From positions 17,250 through 81,249 of the forward strand of contig JBJEUX010000025.1 of the NCBI GenBank assembly GCA_051884055.1: a stretch of DNA of 64,000 bases. Direction: 5' to 3'. This document shows positions 8,400 through 47,445 of this stretch, piece after piece. The notes beneath the pieces are model-generated. The model saw nothing but the letters and a program-made list of their open reading frames with translations, ran no database searches and was not told the origin of the DNA. Numbering within the stretch: position 1 is the stretch's first letter; the number at the start of each line of letters is the position of its first letter. The DNA is from Candidatus Coproplasma sp. Its GTDB lineage: Bacteria > Bacillota > Clostridia > Christensenellales > Borkfalkiaceae. The translations under genes and the position numbers were made by a program.

Positions 8400-11300
8400 T
8401 TAGCTGCGGCGCCAGATATATACGGTGTACAAATCACTTAAATAACTTGCCGAAGATTTTACGTCGGATAATACCGCGGAATCTATTGCCGTACCGCTCG
8501 TTGCAGTTTCCGAAGAAAAACATTGCCAGCCGCTTGTGTTTTTAAAGGTTACGCTAGTCAGACTACTGCAACCATCGAACGCAAACTTACCGATCGAAGT
8601 TACGCTCTCCGGAATAGTGACGCTAGTCAGACTACTGCAACCACTGAACGCATAATCGCCGATCGAAGTTACGCCCTCGGGAATAACGACGCTCGTAAGA
8701 CCACTGCAACCTCTGAACGCATAATCGCCGATCGAAGTTACGCCCTCGGGAATAACGACGCTAGTCAGACTACTGCAACTACTGAACGCATAATCGCCAA
8801 TCGACGTTACGCCCTCTGGGATTACCATATCCGTTAAAAGCTCACCGTTTATATACAGATTCTGCGCAAAATATAACGGATTTGAAAAACAATCTATAAA
8901 AGTTATGCCACACCAATCTGCCACACCGCCCAGATAATATACGTTTGTCAACCCGTAACAATTTATGAACCCGTATTTGCCGATAGAAACTACGCTGTCG
9001 GGAATGGTAATATTCGTCAGGGCTGCGCAGTTTTTGAATGCATATACCAATACCTGAGTAGTTCCGTCCGGTATAATCAAATCGGTTTGCGTACTGTTGA
9101 CCGATACCAGCACTTTATCAACTCCGTCATCAAAGACGGTAAAGCCGTTTTCGTCGGTGGATAAAAAGCTATCGCCTTCCGTATATATCCTCTTAGCGTA
9201 ATAACCTACGTATCCGTTCTCTTTCGAGCCCGCAGTAATAGTGAGCGAAGATAAATTTTTTACTTCTATCAGACGCACACAATTGCTGAAAGAGCTGATG
9301 GAGATACTCTTTACGCTCTTTCCGACAGTCACGCTCGCCAGACTTATACAATCCGAAAACGCGTCTATTCCGATACTTGTTACGTTATCGGGAATTATCA
9401 CGCTCGTCAATGCAGAACAGTTTTCAAACGTATAATTATTTATTGTGCTTACTTTGTCAGGGATTGTAATGCTCGTCAAGGCACTGCAATTACAGAACGC
9501 AGAATAACCGATACCCGTCAAGCTGTCAGGCAACGTTACTGCGGTCAAGCTGAAGCAATCGCTGAACGCATAATCACCTATACCCGTCACGCCTTCGGGA
9601 ATTATCACTTCGGTCAAATCCCTCATATTGAGAAAAGCGCCGTGATTTATTTGCGTTATGTAGTCAGGTACAGTTAATTCGGTTTCCGCGCCTGTGTATG
9701 ACACCAATATCTTATCCGTTCCGTCGTCATAGATCAAGTAGCCGTTTTCATCGTAAGACAGATAGCTTTCACCTGAACTGTATACTCTCTTTGCGTAATA
9801 ACCAACGTAGCCGTTACCATCCGAACCTGCAGTTATTGATAAATCCGACTGATTTTTTATTTCAATTAATCTATAGCAATTATAGAAAGCATGATAGCCG
9901 ATTTTGGTTACGCTGCCCGGAATTACTATATCCGTCAGAGCGCTACAATTCAAAAACGCATTTTCACCGATACTCGTTATGCCGTCGGGGAGCGTAACGT
10001 TAGTCAGATATTTACAACTGTTGAACGCATTGTCATCAATTTTTGTGCCTCCTGTTATCACTACCGTTTTCAGGGATTCAGGAACACACTTATATATATA
10101 CGAACTTGCACCGAATATATAGCTGAAGTGTGTATTTGTCGTTCCGTCCTTTGTATTGCCAACGAAAGGTATGGTTAAATTTTCCAACGAATAACAACCT
10201 CTGAACGCAGCGAAGCCGATAGATTCCCCGCCCGTTACAACTACCGTTTTTAACGTTGAAGGAACGTAAACGGAATTATAGCTATACGAATTTGCACCGA
10301 ATATGTAGCCGAAATGCGTATTTTCCGTTCCGTCCACCGCTGCGCCTACAAACGGAACCGTTATGCTTTCAAGCATCGGACAAGCGCCGAACGTAGATTG
10401 GTAAATACTCTTTACGCTGTCAGGTATTACGACGTTCGTCAGACTGCTGCATCCGAAGAACGCATAACTGCCGATACTTGTTACGCCGTCGGGTATGACT
10501 AAATCCGTTACAAGCTCGTCGTTTATATAGAGATTATGCGCAACAGATAACGGATTGCCGCTTGTGCCGCCGAAACTAATACCACACCAACCGACTATAT
10601 CGCCGGTATAATTGACTTTTGTCAAGCCGCTGCAATCAGAGAACGCTCTGTTGCCGACCCAGGTTACACTGTCGGGAATCGTAACGCTCGTCAGACCGAT
10701 ACAATTTCTAAAAGCGTACTCGCCGATGCTCTCCACTCCGTCCGGGATAACAAGCTCGCCCTGTAACTCCATTCCGTCGATAAACAATCTGACGTTACCT
10801 GACATTAAATTACCCAGTCCTGAAATACCGCACCAATCTGCTATATCCCCCGTAAAGTATACGTCCGTCAGGTTGTTGCAGTAATAGAAAGCATTGTAAC
10901 CTATACTCGTTAAGCCGCTTCCCATCGTTACGCTAATCAGATTTCCACACTGATTAAAAGCACCGTTTTCTATTTCTGTTACGCCGTCCCCAAGTATTAC
11001 GTTACGTAAGTTTCCGCACCAGGAAAAAGCATCTGCTTTAATACTCGTTTCACCCGTGATCTCAACGGTTTTCAGCCTGATGGGAACTGAGCTGAATATA
11101 TAGCTGAATTTACTGCTTATTGTTCCGTCACGGGTTGCCCCCACGAAGGGAAGCGAGATGCTTTCCAAAGAATAGCAACCGACGAACGCATTAGCGCCGA
11201 TACCGGTCACGCTGTTTCCGATCGTTACGCTTGTCAGGCCGCTGCAATCAGAGAACGCTCTTTCACCAATGCTCGTTTCCCCTGTAACCACAACCGTTTT

Positions 11301-14300
11301 TAAGGTTTTGGGGACGTTATAGACTGCGGTATTTAACGGATTTACGCCGAATATATAGCCAAAGTACGTATTGCCCGTTCCGTCACTGAACTCACCGACA
11401 AAAGGAACGGTTATGCTTTCCAATGAAGAGCATCCGCCGAATGCTGAATATCCGATAGCCTTTACCCCGTCGGGAATTTCAATACTTTTCAAGCTGCTGC
11501 AATCAAGGAATGCATAATGGTTGATTTGCGAAATATCGCCAGGAACAGTTAATTCCTTTTCGGTACCCGTATATTTTACTATTATTCTATCCGTTCCGTC
11601 GTCATAGATTATATAGCCGTCTTCATCGACAGATAAATAACTTTCACCGGTATAATATATTCTCTTTGCGTAATATCCTGAATGGCCGTTATCTTCTGAA
11701 CCTGCAGTTATTGTAAGTGAAGATAAATTCTTTACTTCAAATAAACTGTAGCATTTATAGAATGCCTCAGTTCCGATACTCGTAACGCCTTTTCCTATCG
11801 TCACATTCGTCAGACATCTGCAATCATAGAACGCATAATCGCAGATATCTGTTACTCTGTTTCCTATCGTTACGCTGGTCAGACCGCTGCAATCAGAGAA
11901 CGCTGAAGAGCCGATACTCGTTACTCCGTTTCCAATCGTTACGCTGGTCAAACCGCTGTAATTAGAGAATGCATAACTGCCGATACTTGTTACGCCGTCG
12001 GGTATGACTAAATTCGTTACAAGCTCGTCGTTTATATAGAAATTATGCGCAACAGATAACGGATTGCCGCTTGTGCCGCCGAAACTAATACCACACCAAC
12101 CGCCCATATCGCCGGTATAATCGACTCTTGTCAGACCGCCGCAATCAGAGAACGCTGAAGAGCCGATGCTCGTTACACTGTTTCCTACCGTTATGCTTGT
12201 CAGACCGCTGCAATTAGAGAACGCTGAAGAGCCGATACTTGTTACGCCGTTTCCTACCGTTATGCTTGTCAGACCGCTGCAATTATAAAACGCTGAAGAG
12301 CCGATGCTTGTTACACTGTTTCCTACCGTTATGCTTGTCAGACCGCTGCAATTATAAAACGCTGAAGAGCCGATACTTGTTACGCCGTTTCCTACCGTTA
12401 CGCTTGTCAGACCGCTGCAATTATAAAACGCTGAAGAGCCGATACTTGTTACGCCGTTTCCTACCGTTACGCTTGTCAGACCGCTGCAACCATAGAACGC
12501 ATTTGAACCGATCGTTTCACCAGTAATAACAACCGTTTTTAACGTTGAAGGAACGCTTACGTAATTATTGATATACGAACTTGCGCCGAATATGTACCCG
12601 AAATAGTTATAGTTTGCAGAATTTTTCGTATTACCGACAAACGGTAAGGTTATACTTTCCAGCGAAGTACAGCCGCTGAACGAATTGCTACCGATACTTT
12701 CTACACTGTCGGGAATTATCACGCCGGTCAGACCGGTGCAACCATAGAACGCAGACTCGCCGATTGAAGTTACGCTGTCGGGAATTATCACGCCTGCCAG
12801 ACCGGTGCAATTATAGAACGCAGACTTGCCGATTGAAGTTACGCTGTCGGGAATTATCACGCCGGTCAGACCGGTGCAATTATAGAACGCAGACTCGCCG
12901 ATTGAAGTTACGCTGTCGGGAATTATAAAGTCTGCCAGACCGGTGCAATTATAGAACGCATTTGAACTGATACCCGTTACTCCGTTTCCGATCGTTACGC
13001 TTGTCAGACCGCTGCAACCATAGAACGCATTTGAACCGATCGTTTCACCAGTAATAACAACCGTTTTTAAGGTTTTAGGAATATACAAATAGCTTTCACT
13101 ATACGATTCGGCGCCGAATACGTACCCGAAATAGCTTTTGCTTGAAGAATATTTCGTATTACCGACAAACGGCAAGGTTATACTTTTCAGCGAAGTACAG
13201 CACCTGAACGCATCTCCACCGATACTTTCTACGCTGTCGGGAATTATAACGTCGGTCAGACTGCTGCAGTTATAGAACGCGCTGCTGTCGATATTATTTA
13301 CCCCGTCGGCAATCGAAACGCTGGTCAACCCGCTGCAGTTATAGAACGCAGATTTGCCTATATTCGTCACGTTGCCTGAGATTGATACGCTGGTTAAACC
13401 GCTGCAGCCGCTGAACGCTGACGTATCGATATCGGCATCCCCTGAAATCACGACTGATTTTAAGGACGCAGGAACATATGAAGAATTCTCGCTGTACGTG
13501 CCTGCGCCGAAAATATAGCCGAAATGAGTATTGCTTGTTCCGCCTTCGGACGCCCCAACAAACGGAACAGATATGCTTTCTAACGAACTGCAATTACTGA
13601 ACGCGGAAGCTCCGACAGACGTTACGCTGTCGGGAATTATTACGCTCTTCAGCTTGCCGCAATATTCAAAGGCAGAGGAAGCTATGCCCTTCACGCCGTA
13701 AGGAATCGTCACGCTACTCAGTTCGTTACAATGTGAAAATACCTGTTCACTTATACTCTCCACACTGTCGGGTATGATTACGCTTGTTAAACTGCTGCAA
13801 TACTTAAACGCAGAATCAGCTATGTTTGTCACTCCGCATTCCATTGTCAAATCCGTCAGACCGCTGCACCCCGAAAATGCAGAATTACCGATATCCGTTA
13901 CACTGGCGGAGATTGATACGCTGCGCAAATTACAGCAATTGTAGAACGCAGAAGAACCTATATTCGTCACGCCGTCCTCTATAACAACGCTATTTAAGCC
14001 GAGATAGCCGCTGAAAGAATAATTTCCGATGCCCGTCACTCCGTCGGATATTACTAAATCCTCAACCGATTTATCGTTTACATAAAAATCGGAGGCGTAA
14101 TTCAAAGGATTTGCACTTGAATTGCCGAACTTTATACTGCACCAATCTGCCATATCGCCCAAATAATTAACATTAGCCAGGTTGCGGCTATAATAAAAAC
14201 ACTCTTTGCCGAAACTCTTTACGCTGGCGGGGATTGTTACGTCCGTCAATTCGCTGCAGTATGAAAACGCATATTCTCCGATATCGGTTATGCCGTCGGG

Positions 14301-15068
14301 AATAGTTACCTTTTCAATGCTCCTGCAAATTGAAAAGGCCTTGTCCTGTATCCTGATTACTTTCTTGTTTTTGTAGTAAGTCGGTATATAGCAATTGTTT
14401 GCGCCGTACTCTTCGTCCCCCGCGCTGCATATCGCATAGCCGTCATCTTCCAAGACAAAGTCGAAGAACTTATTTGTGCCGACGGTAACACAGTCGGCGA
14501 CGACAGGGGCGCTATCCATATCCTCGCTTTCAAGACAGAATGAAAGGTCAATCTCCGCAGTCGTACTCTTCTGTGCAGAGAACGCAAGCGCTATGCGGTA
14601 GGTCTTGGACTGCTCGGCCTTGAGTTCGGGAACGGTGTACGTAAGTGTAATACTCCTCGTTTGTCCGTCTGTTTTCTCGGTGAAAGTACCCGTTGACGCC
14701 TCTTCAAGCTTGCTTGTCACATAGTCGCAGGGCGAAACGCTTAATTTTACTTTAAATTTATCGCCGACGATCCAGTCGTTTACGGAAAGATCTTTTAACG
14801 TAAAGAACACCAACGCATAGTTGGTCTTTCCCAACTCGAACGTGCGGTTCTCTTCAAGCTTGTCCTCGGTAAAGTTGCCGCTCGGACACTCGTCCTCATC
14901 AGTATAGAGAAATGAATAATCTATGAATGAATTATAGCCCTGATTGCTTTTGGGGGCTTCAATAATCTCCTCGGCGACCGTGCCGTTGCAGGCGGAAAAT
15001 ACGCAGGCTGAACACAGCGCGCATACCGCCAGAATAATCAATAAAACTTTTACCGCAAACTTTTTCAT
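8400..15068 (-). CDS. Giant surface lipoprotein built of BspA-type leucine-rich repeats
   Basis: 2222 aa. Has a signal peptide with Cys (VFSAC|NG), a ~230-aa N-terminal non-repeat region, then dozens of ~23-aa units (GVTSIGxxAFxxCxxLTSVxIP). No LPXTG motif. Has its own promoter and flanking hairpins. Confidence 0.85.
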   Translation of the reverse strand: MKKFAVKVLLIILAVCALCSACVFSACNGTVAEEIIEAPKSNQGYNSFIDYSFLYTDEDECPSGNFTEDKLEENRTFELGKTNYALVFFTLKDLSVNDWIVGDKFKVKLSVSPCDYVTSKLEEASTGTFTEKTDGQTRSITLTYTVPELKAEQSKTYRIALAFSAQKSTTAEIDLSFCLESEDMDSAPVVADCVTVGTNKFFDFVLEDDGYAICSAGDEEYGANNCYIPTYYKNKKVIRIQDKAFSICRSIEKVTIPDGITDIGEYAFSYCSELTDVTIPASVKSFGKECFYYSRNLANVNYLGDMADWCSIKFGNSSANPLNYASDFYVNDKSVEDLVISDGVTGIGNYSFSGYLGLNSVVIEDGVTNIGSSAFYNCCNLRSVSISASVTDIGNSAFSGCSGLTDLTMECGVTNIADSAFKYCSSLTSVIIPDSVESISEQVFSHCNELSSVTIPYGVKGIASSAFEYCGKLKSVIIPDSVTSVGASAFSNCSSLESISVPFVGASEGGTSNTHFGYIFGAGTYSENSSYVPASLKSVVISGDADIDTSAFSGCSGLTSVSISGNVTNIGKSAFYNCSGLTSVSIADGVNNIDSSAFYNCSSLTDVIIPDSVESIGGDAFRCCTSLKSITLPFVGNTKYSSSKSYFGYVFGAESYSESYLYIPKTLKTVVITGETIGSNAFYGCSGLTSVTIGNGVTGISSNAFYNCTGLADFIIPDSVTSIGESAFYNCTGLTGVIIPDSVTSIGKSAFYNCTGLAGVIIPDSVTSIGESAFYGCTGLTGVIIPDSVESIGSNSFSGCTSLESITLPFVGNTKNSANYNYFGYIFGASSYINNYVSVPSTLKTVVITGETIGSNAFYGCSGLTSVTVGNGVTSIGSSAFYNCSGLTSVTVGNGVTSIGSSAFYNCSGLTSITVGNSVTSIGSSAFYNCSGLTSITVGNGVTSIGSSAFSNCSGLTSITVGNSVTSIGSSAFSDCGGLTRVDYTGDMGGWCGISFGGTSGNPLSVAHNFYINDELVTNLVIPDGVTSIGSYAFSNYSGLTSVTIGNGVTSIGSSAFSDCSGLTSVTIGNRVTDICDYAFYDCRCLTNVTIGKGVTSIGTEAFYKCYSLFEVKNLSSLTITAGSEDNGHSGYYAKRIYYTGESYLSVDEDGYIIYDDGTDRIIVKYTGTEKELTVPGDISQINHYAFLDCSSLKSIEIPDGVKAIGYSAFGGCSSLESITVPFVGEFSDGTGNTYFGYIFGVNPLNTAVYNVPKTLKTVVVTGETSIGERAFSDCSGLTSVTIGNSVTGIGANAFVGCYSLESISLPFVGATRDGTISSKFSYIFSSVPIRLKTVEITGETSIKADAFSWCGNLRNVILGDGVTEIENGAFNQCGNLISVTMGSGLTSIGYNAFYYCNNLTDVYFTGDIADWCGISGLGNLMSGNVRLFIDGMELQGELVIPDGVESIGEYAFRNCIGLTSVTIPDSVTWVGNRAFSDCSGLTKVNYTGDIVGWCGISFGGTSGNPLSVAHNLYINDELVTDLVIPDGVTSIGSYAFFGCSSLTNVVIPDSVKSIYQSTFGACPMLESITVPFVGAAVDGTENTHFGYIFGANSYSYNSVYVPSTLKTVVVTGGESIGFAAFRGCYSLENLTIPFVGNTKDGTTNTHFSYIFGASSYIYKCVPESLKTVVITGGTKIDDNAFNSCKYLTNVTLPDGITSIGENAFLNCSALTDIVIPGSVTKIGYHAFYNCYRLIEIKNQSDLSITAGSDGNGYVGYYAKRVYSSGESYLSYDENGYLIYDDGTDKILVSYTGAETELTVPDYITQINHGAFLNMRDLTEVIIPEGVTGIGDYAFSDCFSLTAVTLPDSLTGIGYSAFCNCSALTSITIPDKVSTINNYTFENCSALTSVIIPDNVTSIGIDAFSDCISLASVTVGKSVKSISISSFSNCVRLIEVKNLSSLTITAGSKENGYVGYYAKRIYTEGDSFLSTDENGFTVFDDGVDKVLVSVNSTQTDLIIPDGTTQVLVYAFKNCAALTNITIPDSVVSIGKYGFINCYGLTNVYYLGGVADWCGITFIDCFSNPLYFAQNLYINGELLTDMVIPEGVTSIGDYAFSSCSSLTSVVIPEGVTSIGDYAFRGCSGLTSVVIPEGVTSIGDYAFSGCSSLTSVTIPESVTSIGKFAFDGCSSLTSVTFKNTSGWQCFSSETATSGTAIDSAVLSDVKSSASYLSDLYTVYIWRRS
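8551..8826 (-). repeat. Four tandem 69-bp (23-codon) coding repeats at the C-terminal end of the LRR gene
   Basis: Unit boundaries read at 8551, 8620, 8689 and 8758. Units are highly similar. Confidence 0.9.
10462..10646 (-). repeat. ~185-bp near-identical segment, partner of 11971-12155 within the LRR gene
   Basis: Offset is exactly 1509 bp (503 codons), with only a handful of mismatches by eye. Confidence 0.85.
11971..12155 (-). repeat. ~185-bp near-identical segment, partner of 10462-10646
   Basis: Same reading as the partner segment. Confidence 0.85.
12130..12474 (-). repeat. Five tandem, nearly identical 69-bp coding repeats (LRR units)
   Basis: Units start at 12130, 12199, 12268, 12337 and 12406. 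A diverged sixth unit follows at 12475. Confidence 0.95.
12720..12926 (-). repeat. Three tandem, nearly identical 69-bp coding repeats (LRR units)
   Basis: Units start at 12720, 12789 and 12858. A diverged unit follows. Confidence 0.9.
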
Positions 15069-15275: not shown

Positions 15276-15357
15276 CAAAAGAACTTATTCTTGTACAATC
15301 CAAAAGAACTTATTCTTGCACAAGCTTATTCTTTGCCAAGCTTATTCTTTACCGAAG
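15276..15357 (-). repeat. Four tandem echoes of the hemZ stop-codon region
   Basis: cttattctt occurs at 15284, 15309, 15325 and 15341 (periods 25, 16, 16). The last copy carries the real hemZ stop (tta at 15342-15344). Confidence 0.85.
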
Positions 15358-16712
15358 AGCGCGTCTCTGTCCGATATGATTTTATCGATCTTCTGAATAT
15401 AAGTGGGAATATCCTTGGGCGACGCGCAGCGCTCTATGCGTTCGTCCTCGGCAAACAGCCTCTTTGAAATGGCGTTTGCGCCCACGGCGATATTGTCGGA
15501 AATTTCTTCCATGACGTTTACGTTGTACACGCACGCCTTACCCTTCTTGCTCCAGCCGCAGTTTTCGTAGCCGCCCGCCTGATACTTCTGGCGGTACATA
15601 TAGTACGGCTCGTACCCCGCCTCGGAAAGAAGCTGACGGGAAAGTGCTATCATTTTGCCGATGCCCTCCACGTGAAGGCGGTAGGTCGTCTCCTTGAGTT
15701 TTGCGCCTGCCTTTAACGACAGAGTGTGCACGGTTATGTTTGCAGGATTGAGCGCGATTGCGCGCCTTAAAGAATTTTCGAAATCCTCGGGCGTTTCGTC
15801 GGCAAGACCTGCGATAAGGTCGACGTTTATGTCAAACCCGTATTTTTCCGCCATACCGAAAGCCTCGTACACCTGCGCGCAGGTGTGCTTTCTGCCGATT
15901 TTGACAAGCGTGGAATCGGAGAAGGACTGGGGATTTATGCAAATGCGGTTTACGCCGTAGTCCTTTGAAAGCTTAAGCTTTTCTTCGGAGAATACGTCCG
16001 GTCTGCCAGCCTCTACGGTGTACTCGGTATTTTCAAGCGAAAGAGCGTTGATTGCGGCATATACGCGCTCCAATTGCTTAGTCTCTATCGCAAAGGGCGT
16101 GCCTCCGCCGATATACACGCTGTTGGGGCGGGTGAGCAGGGGTTTTACGCTTGCAATTTCGCGTTCAAGGCAGGATATATAGCCGTCAACGTACTTTCGG
16201 GTAGCCGCAATGGGCGCTGTCACGAACGAGCAGTACTCGCACTTCGTGGGGCAGAACGGCAGACTTATAAACAGGTCCTGTCCGCCGCGGTTGGAATATA
16301 TTTCCTTCTGCGTCTGAACGACCTTTAAGACGTGTTCTGCATTTTCAGGCGCGACCTGCATTTCAGCGAACATCTCGGCAGGGTCCCTGCCCTCCGCGAT
16401 TTCCCTGTACGCGAGCTTTGTGGGGCGTATGCCCGTCAGCGCGCCGTAGGGCAGCTTTATACCCTTAGCCTTTGACAACAGGTTGTAGAACGCGAGCTTT
16501 GCAAACCTTTTTGCGTAGCGCTTAAACTGCAGATCGTCCTCGGTTTTGAGTCGGTTTTCACAGTCGTAAAACTCGCCGTTATACTCTATGCAGTTGAAAT
16601 AAGTATCCGAATAAAAGGAAAAATAATGGGTAAAATCTTCCCCTTCGGCTTCGAAGAGGCGGATTATATCCATTATTTCAGGTTGAAGAAATTGTGTATT
16701 GGTGTTAAGCAT
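15342..16712 (-). CDS. hemZ: Radical SAM protein, HemN/HemZ-like coproporphyrinogen dehydrogenase family
   Basis: 456 aa with a CxxxCxxC cluster motif (CPTKCEYC). Synteny relA-MBL-hemZ is typical of Clostridia. Confidence 0.75.
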   Translation of the reverse strand: MLNTNTQFLQPEIMDIIRLFEAEGEDFTHYFSFYSDTYFNCIEYNGEFYDCENRLKTEDDLQFKRYAKRFAKLAFYNLLSKAKGIKLPYGALTGIRPTKLAYREIAEGRDPAEMFAEMQVAPENAEHVLKVVQTQKEIYSNRGGQDLFISLPFCPTKCEYCSFVTAPIAATRKYVDGYISCLEREIASVKPLLTRPNSVYIGGGTPFAIETKQLERVYAAINALSLENTEYTVEAGRPDVFSEEKLKLSKDYGVNRICINPQSFSDSTLVKIGRKHTCAQVYEAFGMAEKYGFDINVDLIAGLADETPEDFENSLRRAIALNPANITVHTLSLKAGAKLKETTYRLHVEGIGKMIALSRQLLSEAGYEPYYMYRQKYQAGGYENCGWSKKGKACVYNVNVMEEISDNIAVGANAISKRLFAEDERIERCASPKDIPTYIQKIDKIISDRDALFGKE

Positions 16713-21983: not shown

Positions 21984-22919
21984 TTATGCCTTTTTGTCCA
22001 ATTTGGAAATACCGCCGTAAAGCGCGGGAGTAAAAATCGAGTAACCGTACCAGCATGCAAGAACGGAAATTAATGCAGCCGCGTAGGGAACGAGCGAAGA
22101 AATCGCGGGATTTGCAATTATTGCAAATATTGCCGCTATAACGCAAACTACTGCCACCGCCGAGCAAATGAACGCGCCCGTCTTGTAGCTTTCGTGAGCC
22201 GCCGTATCGGAGAGCTCCTTTATGCTTACCTTTGCGTTAGCTTCTTCCTTGAGAGCCTTTTTGATTTTATCGAAATAAACTCCTGAAGTTATTGCGGTTA
22301 CTATAAATATCACTGCCGCGAAAGCAACGCATTCAAGTCCTATGGGAACGCGTGTGAGCGCAAGGAGCGCTGCGTAGATTGCAAGGTTATGAACCTGCGA
22401 TAAAAGCGCCGTTAACGCCATGCCCCACTTGTAGCGCAGACCGAAGTAAATTGCCTGGAAAGCAATGCCCGATGCAAGCGCAATCGACGCATAGATTGCA
22501 ACCTTGGCGCCGCCCACCGTCGTTACGCCCTCGTGAAGAGTCGCTACGCTGTCGATGAGTCCGCTGTCGGAAAGCGCCGTATTGATGCTTTCAGTCGCCT
22601 GTCTGAGCGAATCGGTTGAGGTGGAAGATACAAACTTATAAATAAATTCGTTGCTCACCGAACCTTCGTCGGAAAAGCTGTATTCATAGTAGCCGATGCC
22701 CGAGAGCGCGTTCTGGGTAATTTCCTTTACCTTAGAACCGTCTGCGTCCTCCGCTACCGAACAGGTGATTACTATGCTCTTATAGTCGGAATACTCTCCG
22801 CCGAAGTTGAAGAAACCGCCTGCAAGGAAATGACAAACCGTACCGACTGCCATGCCTATCGCCACTATCACGACGCTGATTATTACAAAAAGATGAGTCT
22901 TTGAAGAAAGCTTAGTCAT
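21984..22919 (-). CDS. secF: Protein translocase subunit SecF
   Basis: 311 aa polytopic protein. Overlaps the secD stop by 8 nt. Confidence 0.9.
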   Translation of the reverse strand: MTKLSSKTHLFVIISVVIVAIGMAVGTVCHFLAGGFFNFGGEYSDYKSIVITCSVAEDADGSKVKEITQNALSGIGYYEYSFSDEGSVSNEFIYKFVSSTSTDSLRQATESINTALSDSGLIDSVATLHEGVTTVGGAKVAIYASIALASGIAFQAIYFGLRYKWGMALTALLSQVHNLAIYAALLALTRVPIGLECVAFAAVIFIVTAITSGVYFDKIKKALKEEANAKVSIKELSDTAAHESYKTGAFICSAVAVVCVIAAIFAIIANPAISSLVPYAAALISVLACWYGYSIFTPALYGGISKLDKKA

Positions 22920-24447
22920 CGCCGTACACCTCCCTCTTGAATCCGCCGAAGCCGAACTTATCCTTTTGAGGCGCGCTGCAAACGTACCACATTAATCTGG
23001 TGAACCAATACATAACGTAGGAAGCAAGCACTGCGATTACGGAGATGAGTCCGCAAGCTGCAACTTCGCCTACTGCAACGAACGCACAGATGATTGACGC
23101 AACCATAAGAACGATATGAATATCCGCTACGGTCATAAGCGTGCGCTTGTATGCCGCCTTTACCGACGCCTGCATGGTCTTACCTCTCTTGCACTGGCTG
23201 CGGACTTCTTCGAATACGATTACGTTCGTAGCGCACAGGAGAATTAATCCTGCAAACGCCGTCAACAGCACCGCAAAGGTGAGCTGAATTTCCAGAAGGT
23301 ACAACGCATAGAGCATTGCAAGGGCAAAGATTGCTATAGGAATACAGGTTACCGCGCCGAGCTTTTTATACTTCAATACAGCCGCTACCATAAATGCAAC
23401 GACGATTATTATGCTTGCAACGAATATGAGCAGAGCCGCGTTTTCGCCTGCCGTAGCAGTGGACGAAAGAACGGTTTCAACGTCGTTATACTTTACCGAA
23501 AGCGCATTGCCGTGAACCGCGGAATTGAGAGCTATTGCCGTATTCTGCGCGAGCTGTGCGTCGTTTGCGGTAAACTGAAGCTTGTCCGAATTGATGGTCG
23601 AATCGCAGGTTACCGAAAGCATAAGCGTATCGCCGAGGAAGAAATACAGAACCTGACTCGACGACGATGCAACCAATGTGGTTATGTCGCGGATTCTCTC
23701 CTGACCGAGCTCGGTAAGGTCAAAGCTTATTGCCGTCGTCGTACCTATGGTGAAGGTGGAAACCGATTTGAAGAAATCGTTTACGTCCTCGGTTACTTTG
23801 GTGAGAGAATAGGTCTTCTCGCCGCTTGACGTGAGAGCGGTATCGGTGTATTCGTCGATTCTGTTACGGTGAGTAGTGCTGCTGTCGTCGGAAGTGGTTA
23901 TGGTTAAATCCGAGGAACGCAGGGTGAATCTGCCGTCTGCAGTGATATAGCTTAAAGCGCTAGTTGCCGCCGAAAGCGCGTTGGAGCGCGTGGTGGAATT
24001 GTTGCCCTTATAAGCTGCGTACGAATAGTTGGTGGGGATGCTGACCTTTATGGTTATTCCGTCCTCAACGGATACGGAATAGCTTGAAAGTCCTTTTTCA
24101 GAAAATCTTCCGCTGATAATCTCTGCATCGGACTTTACCGATTCAGAAAGTTCTCCGCGCGCGGTTTCGTCATACTTTTCCGTATCTACGTAAACGCCGC
24201 CGTAGGAGACGTAACCGCCCTTATCTTCTTCACTGAGATAACCGTATTCCTCTGCGGAGATTACTCCTTCGGGATAGAGCGTCGTGTACGCGTTGCCCGA
24301 AAGGTCTGCGCCGAGATAGATGCTTGAAGCAATGGAATTGTATCTTTGCGTACCGCCGTAGTTGAAAGATACCGTTCCGAATACTGCCGCAACAATAATT
24401 ACGATTACCGTGAGCGAAGTTATTATAGCCGATTTTACTTTGCTCAT
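22912..24447 (-). CDS. secD: Protein translocase subunit SecD
   Basis: ORF 22912..24486 trimmed to the ATG at 24447, which has an AAGGAG RBS. Has a large periplasmic loop and a C-terminal 6-TM domain. Confidence 0.9.
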   Translation of the reverse strand: MSKVKSAIITSLTVIVIIVAAVFGTVSFNYGGTQRYNSIASSIYLGADLSGNAYTTLYPEGVISAEEYGYLSEEDKGGYVSYGGVYVDTEKYDETARGELSESVKSDAEIISGRFSEKGLSSYSVSVEDGITIKVSIPTNYSYAAYKGNNSTTRSNALSAATSALSYITADGRFTLRSSDLTITTSDDSSTTHRNRIDEYTDTALTSSGEKTYSLTKVTEDVNDFFKSVSTFTIGTTTAISFDLTELGQERIRDITTLVASSSSQVLYFFLGDTLMLSVTCDSTINSDKLQFTANDAQLAQNTAIALNSAVHGNALSVKYNDVETVLSSTATAGENAALLIFVASIIIVVAFMVAAVLKYKKLGAVTCIPIAIFALAMLYALYLLEIQLTFAVLLTAFAGLILLCATNVIVFEEVRSQCKRGKTMQASVKAAYKRTLMTVADIHIVLMVASIICAFVAVGEVAACGLISVIAVLASYVMYWFTRLMWYVCSAPQKDKFGFGGFKREVYGDD

Positions 24448-24488: not shown

Positions 24489-24517
24489 ATTATAAAGTAA
24501 AATAGCTTTTCCGTCAA
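24489..24517 (-). promoter_or_regulatory. Sigma-A-type promoter of secDF (TTGACG-17-TATAAT)
   Basis: Minus-strand -35 at 24512-24517 and -10 at 24489-24494. Confidence 0.65.
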
Positions 24518-24596: not shown

Positions 24597-25922
24597 TTAA
24601 GCCTTGGAAGCCTTTTTTACGGCGAGAACGTGCATTGCGCACTCCACGCGCTTTTTCATCATTTCGCAGGTGATTTCGTAAGGCGTGTCGATATTGCCCG
24701 TAAAGTGATAGTTGTTTGCGCTGCAACCGCCGCTGCAAATAAATTTCGCAAAACAGTCCTGACACATTTCGCGCGTGAAAAGACAGGACGAAGCGAACTT
24801 GTCGCGAATGGTGCTATCCACCTTTCCTTCGTACACGTTGCCCATTAAAAACTTGGGGTCGCCTGCAAACTGGTGACAGGGATAGATATCGCCGTTGGGA
24901 ACAACCGAAAAGTATTCGTTGCCCGCGCCGCACGCCGACACGCGCTTTGAAAGGCAGGGTCCGCCCTCCAGATCGACGTTGAAATGGAAGAAATTGAACC
25001 CCTCGCCCTTTTCGTACTTTTCAAGATACTTATCGCAGAGATTTTCGTACTCCGCCTTGATTGCAGGAAGATGTTCGGGCTTGATTGCAAGATCGTCGAT
25101 TTCGGTTACGACGGGCTCCATTGAGATGCTGTCGAAGCCCTGCTCGGCAAGGAAAATTACGTCCTTTGAAAAGTCAAGATTTTTAGCAGTGAACGTTCCA
25201 CGGACGTAGTAACTCTTGTCCCCTCTGCTCTTCACAAACCTCTTGATTTTGTCTATTACGACGTCGAAGCTGCCCTTGCCGTTCACCGTCTTGCGGATTG
25301 CGTCGTGCACTTCCTTTCTTCCGTCGAGGGATAAAACTACGTTTTCCATTTCGGCGTTGAAGAACTCAATCGCGTCGTCGTCCAATAAAAGCGCGTTGGT
25401 CGTGGTCGTAAACAGGAACTTTTTGCCGCGCTCCGCCGCCCTCTCTTTTGCGTAGTAAACTACGTTTTTAATTGTCTGAAGGCACATCAAAGGCTCGCCG
25501 CCGAAGAAGTCGACTTCCAGGACCTTGCGGTTGCCGCTGTTTTCAATGAGGAAGTCTATCGCCTTTTTAGCCGTCTCTTCGCTCATAAACTCGCGTGCGG
25601 AATGATATGCGCCCTCGTCGGCAAAACAATAACGGCAACGCAGATTGCAGTCGTGACAGATGTGAATACACAGCGCCTTGATCTCGTTCGATTTCATAGG
25701 ATAGGACTTGACCTCTTCCTTGTTGAGAAGCCCCGCGCTCTCCAGTCCGTATACGTCCGCCTTGATCTGAGCGACGTCCTCTTCGGTGAGGTAGGTCACG
25801 TCTACGTCCTGACCCTCCTGCGCCGCGAGATAATCTGCCGTCTTGTCGTCGCATTCGTGCAGACTGCCGCTGCCCGTATCGTATATATAGTTTATCGATT
25901 TGTATTTAAAAACGTGTATCAT
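24597..25922 (-). CDS. scfB: Radical SAM/SPASM peptide maturase, SCIFF-associated (thioether-forming ScfB type)
   Basis: 441 aa with a CxxxCxxC motif (CNLRCRYC) and a Cys-rich C-terminal SPASM region (CQDCFAKFICSGGC). Lies immediately downstream of a six-Cys precursor gene. Confidence 0.88.
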   Translation of the reverse strand: MIHVFKYKSINYIYDTGSGSLHECDDKTADYLAAQEGQDVDVTYLTEEDVAQIKADVYGLESAGLLNKEEVKSYPMKSNEIKALCIHICHDCNLRCRYCFADEGAYHSAREFMSEETAKKAIDFLIENSGNRKVLEVDFFGGEPLMCLQTIKNVVYYAKERAAERGKKFLFTTTTNALLLDDDAIEFFNAEMENVVLSLDGRKEVHDAIRKTVNGKGSFDVVIDKIKRFVKSRGDKSYYVRGTFTAKNLDFSKDVIFLAEQGFDSISMEPVVTEIDDLAIKPEHLPAIKAEYENLCDKYLEKYEKGEGFNFFHFNVDLEGGPCLSKRVSACGAGNEYFSVVPNGDIYPCHQFAGDPKFLMGNVYEGKVDSTIRDKFASSCLFTREMCQDCFAKFICSGGCSANNYHFTGNIDTPYEITCEMMKKRVECAMHVLAVKKASKA

Positions 25923-25935
25923 AATAACAGTAAAT

Positions 25936-25962
25936 AAGGAGCAGAAGTTTTTTCTGCTCCTT
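25936..25962 (-). terminator. Hairpin between scfA and scfB, a candidate partial terminator/attenuator
   Basis: 11-bp perfect stem aaggagcagaa/ttctgctcctt with a 5-nt loop. The U tract on the minus strand is weak (ATTTAC). Confidence 0.5.
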
Positions 25963-25986
25963 TTATAGCATTTCCGTAATTTTTAA

Positions 25987-26145
25987 TTACTTGGTTTCCT
26001 TATCGGGGTTCTGTTCTCTGGTGATTCTTTCGCAGCTCTGGTTGCCTACGGTGCAGCTGGTCTTGCAAGCGGACTGGCAGGTGCTTCTGCATTCGCCGCA
26101 AGCGGTTACTTTTCTTTCAGCGGGTTTAGCTATTGTCTTTATCAT
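25987..26145 (-). CDS. scfA: SCIFF (six cysteines in forty-five residues) ribosomal peptide precursor
   Basis: Hand translation: MIKTIAKPAERKVTACGECRSTCQSACKTSCTVGNQSCERITREQNPDKETK (52 aa, 6 Cys). AAGGAG lies 9 nt upstream of the ATG. Not in the ORF track because it is under 60 aa. Confidence 0.9.
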   Translation of the reverse strand: MIKTIAKPAERKVTACGECRSTCQSACKTSCTVGNQSCERITREQNPDKETK

Positions 26146-26183
26146 TTTAAAGTTCTCCTTAATTTGCGTTTTGCTTTTTTATT

Positions 26184-26212
26184 ATTATAAAATACGCTTG
26201 ACAAAAAATCAA
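26184..26212 (-). promoter_or_regulatory. Sigma-A-type promoter of scfA (TTGATT-17-TATAAT)
   Basis: Minus-strand -35 at 26207-26212 and -10 at 26184-26189, about 38 nt upstream of the scfA ATG. Confidence 0.65.
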
Positions 26213-26229: not shown

Positions 26230-26595
26230 TTACCTCTTTTTGATATTTACGGCTATTATTCCCGTCACCGCGCCCGCAATACTGCCGATTATAAGCTCCA
26301 ATGCAAACGTCCAGCTTATCGAAAAACTGCCCGCGATTGCGCTGAACAGCAGATAAGTGAGCACAACGCTGACCGCGCCGAGCGCCGCGCCCTTTATAAG
26401 TCCCTTGTCGTCTCTTATAAAGAGCATTCCACCGAAAATTATCGCAAGCACTTTGAAAACCTGGTTTACAGGGCCGATTGCCGAGGTCGGCAGACAGAAA
26501 ATCTGAATAATGAGCGTAAATAACAACGCGTAAACAAGTGCGAAAATTACGGCTGCGCACGCCGCCTTGGCTATCTGAACTATGCTTTTCAACAT
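26230..26595 (-). CDS. Small integral membrane protein (YrzE/TIGR04086-like, from memory)
   Basis: 121 aa with about 4 hydrophobic helices. Lies between yajC and the SCIFF cassette. Confidence 0.6.
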   Translation of the reverse strand: MLKSIVQIAKAACAAVIFALVYALLFTLIIQIFCLPTSAIGPVNQVFKVLAIIFGGMLFIRDDKGLIKGAALGAVSVVLTYLLFSAIAGSFSISWTFALELIIGSIAGAVTGIIAVNIKKR

Positions 26596-26631
26596 AAAAA
26601 ATCCCTCCGCTTACATTAACGTATGCGGAGG
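26596..26631 (-). terminator. Hairpin plus U tract after yajC
   Basis: Stem cctccgc/gcggagg followed by GATTTTTT on the minus strand. It overlaps the RBS of the next gene. Confidence 0.55.
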
Positions 26632-26651: not shown

Positions 26652-27116
26652 TCAGTCCTTCTTCTCTTCCGTCGTTTCTTCGGAAGATTCTGCGGGCTTC
26701 GCTTCTTCCTGAACTGACTTTGCTTCTTCCTGAGCGGGCTCTTCAACGGATTCGCTCTGCTCTTCGCTTGCAGCCTTCTTGTCGTCTACGACTGCATCGG
26801 TCTGATAGATAGCCTGCTTGTCGAATTTCATATAGCACTTGCCCGAGGACTCGCTGCCGGTTTCAAGCACGAAGGTGCTTTCTTCGTCGTTTACTTCTAC
26901 GACGATGCCGCATACGCCGCCGATGGTCTTGACCTTGTTGCCGGGCTTAACCGAGTTGATGAGCTGTTCTGCCTCCTGCTGACGCTTTTTGTTGCGGCGA
27001 GAGCTTACGACGAACATTACGATAAGCAAAACTACGAGTACGCCGAGCATAACGTAAGTTAACCACTGGCTGTTGCCGCTGGTTGAGGACGATGTTTCCA
27101 ATAAAGAAAGTATCAT
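26652..27116 (-). CDS. yajC: Preprotein translocase subunit YajC with a long acidic C-terminal tail
   Basis: 154 aa with a single TM helix and a YajC core (VKPGNKVKTIGGVCGIVVEV). About 50 aa of Glu/Ala/Ser-rich tail follows. Confidence 0.85.
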   Translation of the reverse strand: MILSLLETSSSTSGNSQWLTYVMLGVLVVLLIVMFVVSSRRNKKRQQEAEQLINSVKPGNKVKTIGGVCGIVVEVNDEESTFVLETGSESSGKCYMKFDKQAIYQTDAVVDDKKAASEEQSESVEEPAQEEAKSVQEEAKPAESSEETTEEKKD

Positions 27117-39753: not shown

Positions 39754-40140
39754 GGGGCTGTTTCAGTTTCGATTGCGGTACGATTTTGACGTAAGCATAC
39801 CAAAGGCTCGGCTTTGTAAAAACGGAAATTTAAATTTAAACGCAGAATCTAAGAATTCTAAAGTCATGGCTTTCCCCGCATTCAACGGCGCAAGCCTGGC
39901 ATGTGCTGCTTAACTTAACGCAGTCCGTCGGCGCGTTCTTCTCCCACGGGAACACGTCGGCGCTATTTTGTGGGATTGTTGAAAGAGCTTAACCTGACTC
40001 CTAAATGAAATTTAAGGTTTGCCCGTAAGGTTTGCCCGTTCGTCGGCGCGCCTTACGGAAAGATATAAAGGCGGACTAAGTATGTAGAAAGCGCATCTGA
40101 CTATCGTAAGACCAGGGTGCAAGTCCCTGCAGCTCCACCA
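39754..40140 (+). ncRNA. ssrA: tmRNA (SsrA)
   Basis: 5' GGGGCUG pairs with 3' CAGCUCC-ACCA, including the G3:U wobble, and a T-arm cagggTGCAAGTccctg is present. An internal frame GCA...GCT GCT TAA (39842-39913) encodes AESKNSKVMAFPAFNGASLACAA. GUAAAAA lies upstream of the putative resume codon. Length 387 nt. Confidence 0.9.
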
Positions 40141-47201: not shown

Positions 47202-47235
47202 GCCGCCGCGCATTTTAGCGCGGCGGCTTATTTTA
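47202..47235 (+). terminator. Amylase gene terminator (first copy of a repeated hairpin)
   Basis: Stem gccgccgcgc/gcgcggcggc with a 6-nt loop, then TTATTTTAT. Confidence 0.8.
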
Positions 47236-47445
47236 TATTGACCAACGACCGCCCTCTGCACTAAATAGCGCAGAATTTCACTCTTTTAAACGATTACACC
47301 TTACTGTCCGCCGCGCATTTTAGCGCGGCGGCTTATTTTTATTGACCAACGACCGCCCTCCGCGCTAAATAGCGCAGAATCTCACTCTTTTAAACGATTA
47401 CACCTTACTGTCCGCCGCGCTAAATGCGCGGCGGTTTATTTTTCC
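47203..47445. repeat. About 2.3 tandem copies of a ~105-bp unit, each starting with a GC-rich terminator-like hairpin
   Basis: Hairpin starts at 47203, 47308 and 47412 (periods 105 and 104). Copies 1 and 2 differ at only a few positions. Confidence 0.9.

Follow-up and report, generated by a model that had tools for sequence, protein, structure and literature searches.

We analyzed a 64-kb stretch of DNA, referred to here as the window, with a focus on a two-gene cassette on its minus strand that encodes a small peptide of the SCIFF family and the radical-SAM (S-adenosylmethionine) enzyme that matures it. As judged from family models and comparison with related loci, this pair of genes forms a canonical cassette for a SCIFF ranthipeptide, in a bacterium that resembles Candidatus Coproplasma (Christensenellales). 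The genes and elements of the cassette are listed below, with the basis for each assignment in parentheses; SD stands for Shine-Dalgarno sequence and ORF for open reading frame.

25987-26145, minus strand: scfA, encoding the 52-aa SCIFF precursor MIKTIAKPAERKVTACGECRSTCQSACKTSCTVGNQSCERITREQNPDKETK (ORF list, TIGR03973/PF13165 and NCBI identity)
Within ScfA: leader, residues 1-15; six-Cys core, residues 16-38; charged tail ERITREQNPDKETK beyond the last Cys
24597-25922, minus strand: scfB, encoding a 441-aa radical-SAM/SPASM thioether-forming SCIFF maturase (TIGR03974, Pfam, CteB alignment and NCBI identity)
25936-25962, minus strand: conserved stem-loop with a perfect 11-bp stem, a 5-nt loop and a weak U tract, AUUUACUGUU (folding and covariation)
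26184-26212, minus strand: predicted scfA promoter of the sigma-A/sigma-70 type, TTGATT (26212-26207), 17-nt spacer, TATAAT (26189-26184) (10 of 12 consensus positions)
26155-26160, minus strand: scfA SD, AAGGAG, 9 nt 5' of the ATG (direct reading)

An earlier, sequence-only reading of the window had described a 52-aa ORF with six cysteines, its AAGGAG sequence 9 nt before the ATG, a TTGATT-17-TATAAT promoter of its own, a perfect 11-bp hairpin with a weak U tract, and a 441-aa CxxxCxxC/SPASM enzyme proposed to be a SCIFF maturase, whose gene lacks an obvious SD. All of these elements were found exactly where that reading had put them. It had also called the peptide gene unannotated, which is correct in so far as the ORF is absent from the ORF track used for that reading, but both exact proteins are present in NCBI. 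The peptide is identical to MGN0814104.1 ('six-cysteine ranthipeptide SCIFF', from a metagenome-assembled genome of Candidatus Coproplasma sp.), and the enzyme is identical to MGN0814103.1 ('thioether cross-link-forming SCIFF peptide maturase').

We searched both proteins with the hidden Markov models of the SCIFF and SCIFF-maturase families, as the sequence-only reading had proposed, and both exceed the cut-offs. For ScfA, the scores are 54.9 bits with TIGR03973 (cut-off 50) and 55.7 bits with PF13165 (cut-off 27). ScfB reaches 568.5 bits with TIGR03974 (cut-off 425) and has the Pfam domains Radical_SAM, Fer4_12 and SPASM. On the 'not_ScfB' exception model NF040492, ScfB reaches 484.2 bits, below the cut-off of 855, and these cut-offs eliminate the idea that it is an orphan 'not_ScfB' paralogue. 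The six cysteines of ScfA lie at positions 16, 19, 23, 27, 31 and 38, a spacing (C-x2-C-x3-C-x3-C-x3-C-x6-C) that fits the SCIFF family. The gene is directly upstream of the TIGR03974 maturase gene on the same strand, with a 64-nt spacer, and the two genes are arranged likewise in 79 of the 79 related loci that cover this position.

The closest characterized systems are CteA/CteB (thermocellin) of Clostridium thermocellum (5WGG/5WHY) and Tte1186a/Tte1186 of Caldanaerobacter subterraneus, with which ScfA shares the core spacing C-x2-C-x3-CQSAC-x3-C-x6-C. ScfB aligns with CteB from end to end (residues 1-434 with CteB residues 6-450; phmmer against 5wgg, E = 4e-135), although the two are only 48% identical. 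The radical-SAM cysteines C92, C96 and C99 (CNLRCRYC, CX3CX2C) align with those of CteB, as do nine cysteines of the SPASM region (C323, C331, C349, C387, C390, C396, C400, C419 and C428), so that all 12 of the 12 cluster cysteines are shared. Residues 1-80 of ScfB align with the N-terminal leader-recognition domain of CteB, which resembles a recognition element (RRE) of RiPPs (peptides made by the ribosome and modified after translation), in the full-length phmmer alignment only.

In CteA and Tte1186a, one thioether has been shown, from Cys32 to Thr37 (or to Thr34, S-C-gamma) (PMC8326336). Like these peptides, ScfA has both partners of the known cross-link: the equivalents of CteA Cys32 and of Thr37/Thr34 are Cys27 and Thr32/Thr29, respectively. 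ScfA is therefore predicted to receive a thioether from Cys27 to Thr32 (or Thr29).

ScfA differs from canonical SCIFF peptides in three respects. Its core reads CGECRSTC rather than CGECQTSC, its leader is five residues shorter (the first Cys is at position 16, versus 21 in canonical SCIFFs such as that of locus L083), and it carries a conserved charged tail of 13-14 residues where canonical SCIFFs mostly have 2-6 residues past the last Cys. The shorter leader and the tail together account for a length of 52 aa instead of approximately 45 aa. The TIGR03973 match covers ScfA residues 2-39 and runs to the last position of the model; because it ends at residue 39, the last 13 residues lie outside the family consensus.

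The sequence-only reading had left it undecided whether such a tail is typical, and had suggested an alignment against other SCIFF peptides. In such a comparison, tails of 12-14 residues, of the type ER[IV]TRE[QE]NPEK or ER[IV]TRE.KIE.K, occur in the window, in the 79 related loci and in the 120 closest database clusters. Across the whole family, represented at 50% identity, tails are between 2 and about 20 residues long. In the canonical CGECQTSC type, the last Cys is mostly followed by 2-6 residues (ENK, EQK), and the CGECRS[ST]C subtype often has 10-17 charged residues there. Judged by these predicted peptides, the charged tail of ScfA is the conserved norm of its clade, and peptides of the CGECRS[ST]C subtype often have one. 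Since the tail is shared by the related genomes and the 120 closest database clusters, we dismiss the ideas that it is an aberrant or one-off extension or that the stop codon was called wrongly. A separate observation concerns the representative protein P0152, a single database ORF with a tandem pair of SCIFF cores (CGECQTSCQSACKTSCGIANQKC ... CGECQTSCQSACKTSCGIANQSC), which may be a duplicated or fused precursor.

Our readings of promoter activity, termination and transcript stability draw on sequence and comparative genomics. One genome per GTDB species was scanned, which yielded 80 loci with ScfB identities of 76-93%, all from uncultured Christensenellales-type Clostridia (Candidatus Coproplasma, Scatosoma, 'Christensenella sp.' and Borkfalkiaceae). 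One of them, L044, begins within the cassette and lacks scfA, so 79 related loci hold scfA; together with the window, these give the 80 sequences used for the hairpin. In total, 84 related loci were sampled, including outgroup loci from other Clostridia lineages. Counts for the scfA promoter refer to 78 loci and those for the secD promoter to 77 loci.

A promoter of the form TTG(ATT/CAA/CTT)-17-TATAAT lies upstream of scfA in approximately 77 of the 78 loci, with the end of the -10 element 28-45 nt before the ATG in most of them. The hexamers are conserved while the spacer and flanking sequences drift, and this phylogenetic footprint supports a real and strong scfA promoter. The promoter proposed by the sequence-only reading thus appears considerably better founded than before, and it is supported that scfA has its own conserved promoter, as far as comparative data can indicate. 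The SD is similarly retained: AAGGAG or AGGAG is found 7-11 nt upstream of the scfA start in nearly all related loci.

The hairpin that follows scfA begins 24 nt past the scfA stop codon and leaves 13 nt between its stem and the ATG of scfB. Its predicted folding free energy is -17 kcal/mol (z = -7.1 versus dinucleotide shuffles), and none of 200 shuffles folds as well. A stable hairpin of 8-15 bp, with free energies of -11.5 to -22.8 kcal/mol, is present in the scfA-scfB spacer of all 80 of the 80 sequences, and in 71 of these it starts at most 35 nt from the scfA stop codon. Where the spacer is 95-1245 nt long, the hairpin still lies 17-21 nt past the scfA stop and as far as 1199 nt from scfB. 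Because the hairpin keeps its distance to the scfA stop as the spacer grows, it belongs to the 3' end of scfA and not to the ribosome-binding site of scfB. The longest spacer, of 1245 nt, is that of L008 (3256-4500); six other loci (L002, L005, L007, L012, L030 and L072) have spacers of 233-552 nt, and several extra hairpins occur in these long spacers.

The stem is conserved in its structure. In a MAFFT alignment (A1) of 56 distinct hairpin sequences, 89.3% of cells are paired, versus 44-62% in controls in which the pairing partners were slid. Two-sided changes affect 6 of the 11 base pairs and amount to 45 cells, versus 15.8 in shuffles, and none of 500 shuffles reaches 45, but kinship among the loci inflates this shuffle statistic, and few independent mutational events may underlie many of the cells. 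Despite this caveat, the direction of the covariation signal appears clear. Examples of compensatory change in the stem are AAGGAGCAGA/UCUGCUCCUU, AAGGGCGGA/UCCGCCCUU and AGGGAGCAGA/UCUGCUCCCU, and the hairpin of L006 represents a G-U intermediate. Hairpins of unrelated sequence occupy the equivalent position in Scatosoma-like relatives and in four other Clostridia lineages, where most of them are followed by 4-6 consecutive U residues, e.g., GCAGC-UUAG-GCUGC-UUUUU.

Other identities for this hairpin were considered. It is not a dispersed repeat element, as its sequence occurs once in the 64-kb window (chance matches expected, 0), and an Rfam search of the window found no known structured RNA family in the spacer or the leader, its only match being a transfer-messenger RNA (tmRNA). 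From 25923 to 26145, a consensus promoter scan of the minus strand found no promoter-like site. With none between the genes, and with only 13 nt left past the hairpin, a separate promoter for scfB within the spacer can be set aside, from which it follows that scfB would be transcribed only by read-through of the hairpin.

There is no SD in the 30 nt upstream of the scfB ATG, and scfB is likewise SD-less in most Coproplasma-like loci, while an SD is present in Scatosoma-like and some outgroup loci. This absence fits a low output of enzyme. However, recJ, tgt, ruvA and queA in the window also lack an SD, so its absence in scfB is unremarkable.

The arrangement of precursor gene, hairpin and enzyme gene, with read-through into the latter, is the usual design of RiPP operons. 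In nisA-nisB and sboA-albA, for example, a small precursor gene, expressed at a high level from a promoter of its own, is followed by a stem-loop and then by an enzyme gene that is reached by read-through. Transporters, immunity proteins and regulators are encoded in those operons as well, whereas scfA and scfB are two genes within a string of housekeeping genes.

We propose the following mechanism for the cassette. The stem-loop would end or stabilize most transcripts, and scfB, which also lacks an SD, would be transcribed by read-through; the outcome would be much precursor and little enzyme. The N-terminal recognition domain of ScfB would bind the ScfA leader, by homology to CteB and Tte1186. 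ScfB would then cleave SAM at its CX3CX2C cluster and, with two auxiliary SPASM clusters, form a Cys-to-Thr thioether, again by homology. The product would most likely be a regulatory or signaling peptide, by analogy with Clostridium, and this is the least certain step. In Clostridium beijerinckii, knockout of the precursor and enzyme genes is described as lowering the expression of sporulation genes and raising that of agr, and a part for SCIFF peptides in quorum sensing has been suggested (Chen et al. 2020, as summarized in PMC8102284 and PMC8326336). The sequence-only reading had stated that the physiological role of the pair was unknown; given the published quorum-sensing role (via PMC8326336 and PMC8102284), this is somewhat out of date.

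We consider this explanation as a whole, i.e., a SCIFF cassette with a leaky stem-loop, an excess of precursor, a thioether and a signaling-type product, to be likely. Several points weigh against it, in addition to the kinship that affects the covariation statistic. In the clade of the window, the U tract is weak, with 3-5 T in the 8 nt past the stem in most loci; in the window itself, it consists of UU (inside the stem) and then AUUUACUGUU. A scan for terminators in the region is at chance level (9 terminator-like sites versus 9.0 expected), as is a scan for promoters (9 promoter-like sites versus 8.0 expected), and since neither consensus scan is significant, the functional claims for the promoter and the hairpin rest on conservation. 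Published accounts differ as to which Thr is the acceptor (Thr37 or Thr34) and as to the number of cross-linked cysteines among the six (PMC8326336). Finally, in the secondary citations through which it is known to us, the quorum-sensing role is shown only in two Clostridium species.

The weak U tract also bears on the nature of the hairpin, which might be not a terminator but an element of mRNA processing or stability. In such a scenario, the scfA-scfB transcript would be cleaved and the 3' end of scfA shielded from exonucleases, which would also produce an excess of precursor mRNA. The association of the hairpin with the 3' end of scfA agrees with this idea, and for hairpins that follow the precursor genes of lantibiotic and sactipeptide operons, both termination and 3'-end protection have been proposed. 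However, distant relatives hold textbook terminators with 4-6 U at the equivalent position, which points to termination as the ancestral function. Moreover, processing and termination are not mutually exclusive. We see a pure stability element as possible but rather unlikely. A different proposal is that the hairpin gates translation of scfB, as its 5' arm contains AAGGAG, which looks like an SD, and its 3' arm contains CUCCUU, which looks like an anti-SD. The hairpin ends at most 16 nt from the scfB ATG in 42 of the 80 sequences, and the lack of an SD for scfB in most Coproplasma-like loci could be taken in the same sense. Yet the AAGGAG is 34 nt upstream of the ATG, too far for SD action, and SD-less starts are frequent among the neighboring genes. 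In 27 of the 80 sequences, the hairpin is at least 40 nt from scfB, and up to 1199 nt, while its distance to the scfA stop is kept, and variants such as AAGGGCGGA/UCCGCCCUU keep the pairing but lose the SD-like sequence. A riboswitch-like SD/anti-SD control of scfB is therefore rejected, because the hairpin tracks scfA rather than scfB and compensatory variants drop the GGAG; any such gating strikes us as very improbable. The hairpin is probably a leaky intrinsic terminator, possibly one that also stabilizes the 3' end. The partial terminator suggested in the sequence-only reading has thus gained considerable support, from the presence of a hairpin in 80 of 80 sequences, from covariation and from the U-tract terminators of distant relatives, even though it is still deduced from sequence.

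The cassette lies in a conserved gene neighborhood, whose members nearest to scfA and scfB are listed next.

26230-26595, minus strand: upstream neighbor of the cassette, encoding a 121-aa TIGR04086/DUF3792 membrane protein (TIGR04086, 36.6 bits, cut-off 30; PF12670, 31.9 bits, cut-off 31.3)
26652-27116, minus strand: yajC (TIGR00739, 53.1 bits, cut-off 44.2; PF02699, 67.6 bits)
21984-24447, minus strand: secD and secF, the latter at 21984-22919 (divergent hits that stay below the equivalog cut-offs; SecF is hit by PF02355)
24489-24517, minus strand: predicted secD promoter TTGACG-17-TATAAT, the downstream boundary of the cassette (11 of 12 consensus positions)

In every related locus that is long enough to show the order, ruvB-queA-tgt-yajC-TIGR04086-scfA-scfB-secD-secF-recJ are found on one strand; in the window, this string is preceded by ruvA and followed by relA. 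All related loci of the clade that cover the position have the TIGR04086 gene between yajC and scfA, and the five loci of other Clostridia lineages lack it, so it is specific to Christensenellales-type loci. The order in the outgroups varies. The Lachnospiraceae locus reads tgt-yajC-scfA-scfB-recJ-apt-relA, with no secDF at the site; the Guggenheimella locus reads ruvAB-queA-tgt-yajC-scfA-scfB-(hexapeptide-repeat protein)-secDF-recJ; an HGW-2-like Firmicute has tgt-yajC-(PHP)-scfA-scfB-secDF-recJ; and Anaerofustis has scfA-scfB-secD-secF-recJ, with no yajC upstream. Since scfAB adjoins yajC and/or secDF in several lineages, this slot is old and widespread.

At the downstream boundary, a promoter of the form TTGAC[GT]-17/18-TATAAT is conserved between scfB and secD in 74 of the 77 loci. 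The start codon of the longest secD ORF, TTG 24486, falls inside this conserved promoter, and ATG 24447 has an AAGGAG SD 6 nt upstream; the location of the TTG within the promoter makes ATG 24447 the most likely start of secD, as predicted from sequence features. No significant structure was found 3' of scfB (folding z = -1.3). Read-through from the cassette into secDF may occur, but secDF would not depend on it, as it has its own promoter.

Two side observations concern these neighbors. SecD and SecF are highly divergent: SecD scores 79.8 bits (cut-off 244) and has no Pfam match, SecF scores 46.9 bits (cut-off 160), and in most related genomes whose ScfB is 76-86% identical, both proteins show no more than 21-56% identity. 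In addition, the interval from the yajC stop to the start of the TIGR04086 gene contains a 14-nt inverted repeat (86% complementary; 26604-26631, minus strand). The GGAGG SD of the TIGR04086 gene falls in the 3' arm of this repeat, as read on the minus strand, and the repeat could be a terminator that follows yajC or a structure that masks this SD.

The position of the cassette between yajC and secDF had led the sequence-only reading to suggest a link to secretion or envelope function. The synteny itself is conserved across several Clostridia orders, as described above, but the functional link is weak: it consists of synteny only, and 74 of 77 loci have a conserved promoter for secD itself. 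In its strongest form, the suggestion would be of a functional coupling between the cassette and the accessory proteins of the Sec machinery (YajC, SecDF and the TIGR04086 protein), with the modified peptide acting at the translocon or being exported with its help. The invariant gene order, the adjacency to yajC and/or secDF in the four outgroup lineages named above, and the lack of a terminator past scfB are all compatible with this, as is the fact that the two-gene cassette encodes neither a protease nor an exporter. On the other hand, the string also holds the unrelated housekeeping genes ruvAB, queA, tgt, recJ and relA, and scfA and secD are each under their own conserved promoter. The Lachnospiraceae site lacks secDF, the Anaerofustis site lacks an upstream yajC, and the TIGR04086 gene is missing from all five outgroup loci. 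A literature search found no paper, within the library searched, that joins SCIFF with SecD. We regard such coupling as improbable. A narrower version, in which the modified peptide would not be a secreted signal but would work inside the cell or at the membrane as a partner of the Sec accessory complex (YajC/SecDF, with the TIGR04086 protein in this clade), appears to us quite improbable as well. If true, it would account for the retention of the cassette between yajC and secDF in several Clostridia orders, for the constant absence of an exporter or protease of its own, and for the conserved charged tail of the clade, ER[IV]TRE[QE]NPEK.

The signaling-type product of our preferred explanation draws on the Clostridium SCIFFs of Chen et al. 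2020. The cassette in the window belongs to the same family by model and, like SCIFF systems in general, has one copy per genome and no dedicated exporter; a pangenome preprint likewise reports at most one conserved ranthipeptide cluster per species (bioRxiv 10.1101/2025.02.12.637840). In contrast to those SCIFFs, the organism of the window is an uncultured gut member of the Christensenellales, its system is known here from its genes, and its peptide is of the tail-bearing subtype.

Several other features of the window lie outside the cassette and its neighborhood. A second radical-SAM protein of 456 aa is encoded downstream of relA (15342-16712, minus strand); it matches PF04055 only, with no SPASM match, and is not part of the SCIFF cassette. 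An ORF of 2222 aa (8400-15068, minus strand) is made up of BspA-type leucine-rich repeats over nearly its whole length (PF13306, 1222 bits, 17 stretches), contains several arrays of 69-nt (23-aa) tandem repeats with 79-94% identity, and is probably a giant surface protein. The tmRNA gene found by Rfam is at 39754-40140 on the plus strand (RF00023, 125 bits, full length), whereas ARAGORN reported no tRNA or tmRNA in the window. Finally, a 104-nt unit is repeated 2.3 times, with 92% identity, at 47203-47443; it contains a G+C-rich palindrome (CCGCCGCGC...GCGCGGCGG) and is apparently intergenic.

It is important to stress that the SCIFF cassette described here is already known and publicly annotated, and it is not a new kind of system. 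What is new is the comparative support for the scfA promoter and for the hairpin that follows scfA, and the description of the tail-bearing subtype. SCIFF is among the most widespread RiPP systems of Clostridia, with a function that is poorly understood beyond one quorum-sensing report. The tail-bearing SCIFF subtype is dominant in the Christensenellales, and in the predicted transcription unit, the conserved promoter and strong SD of scfA are combined with a likewise conserved hairpin, the probable leaky terminator, and with an SD-less enzyme gene that would depend on read-through. While these details open no new question, those of the transcription unit and of the tail would be useful for the design of expression constructs and for reading metatranscriptomes.

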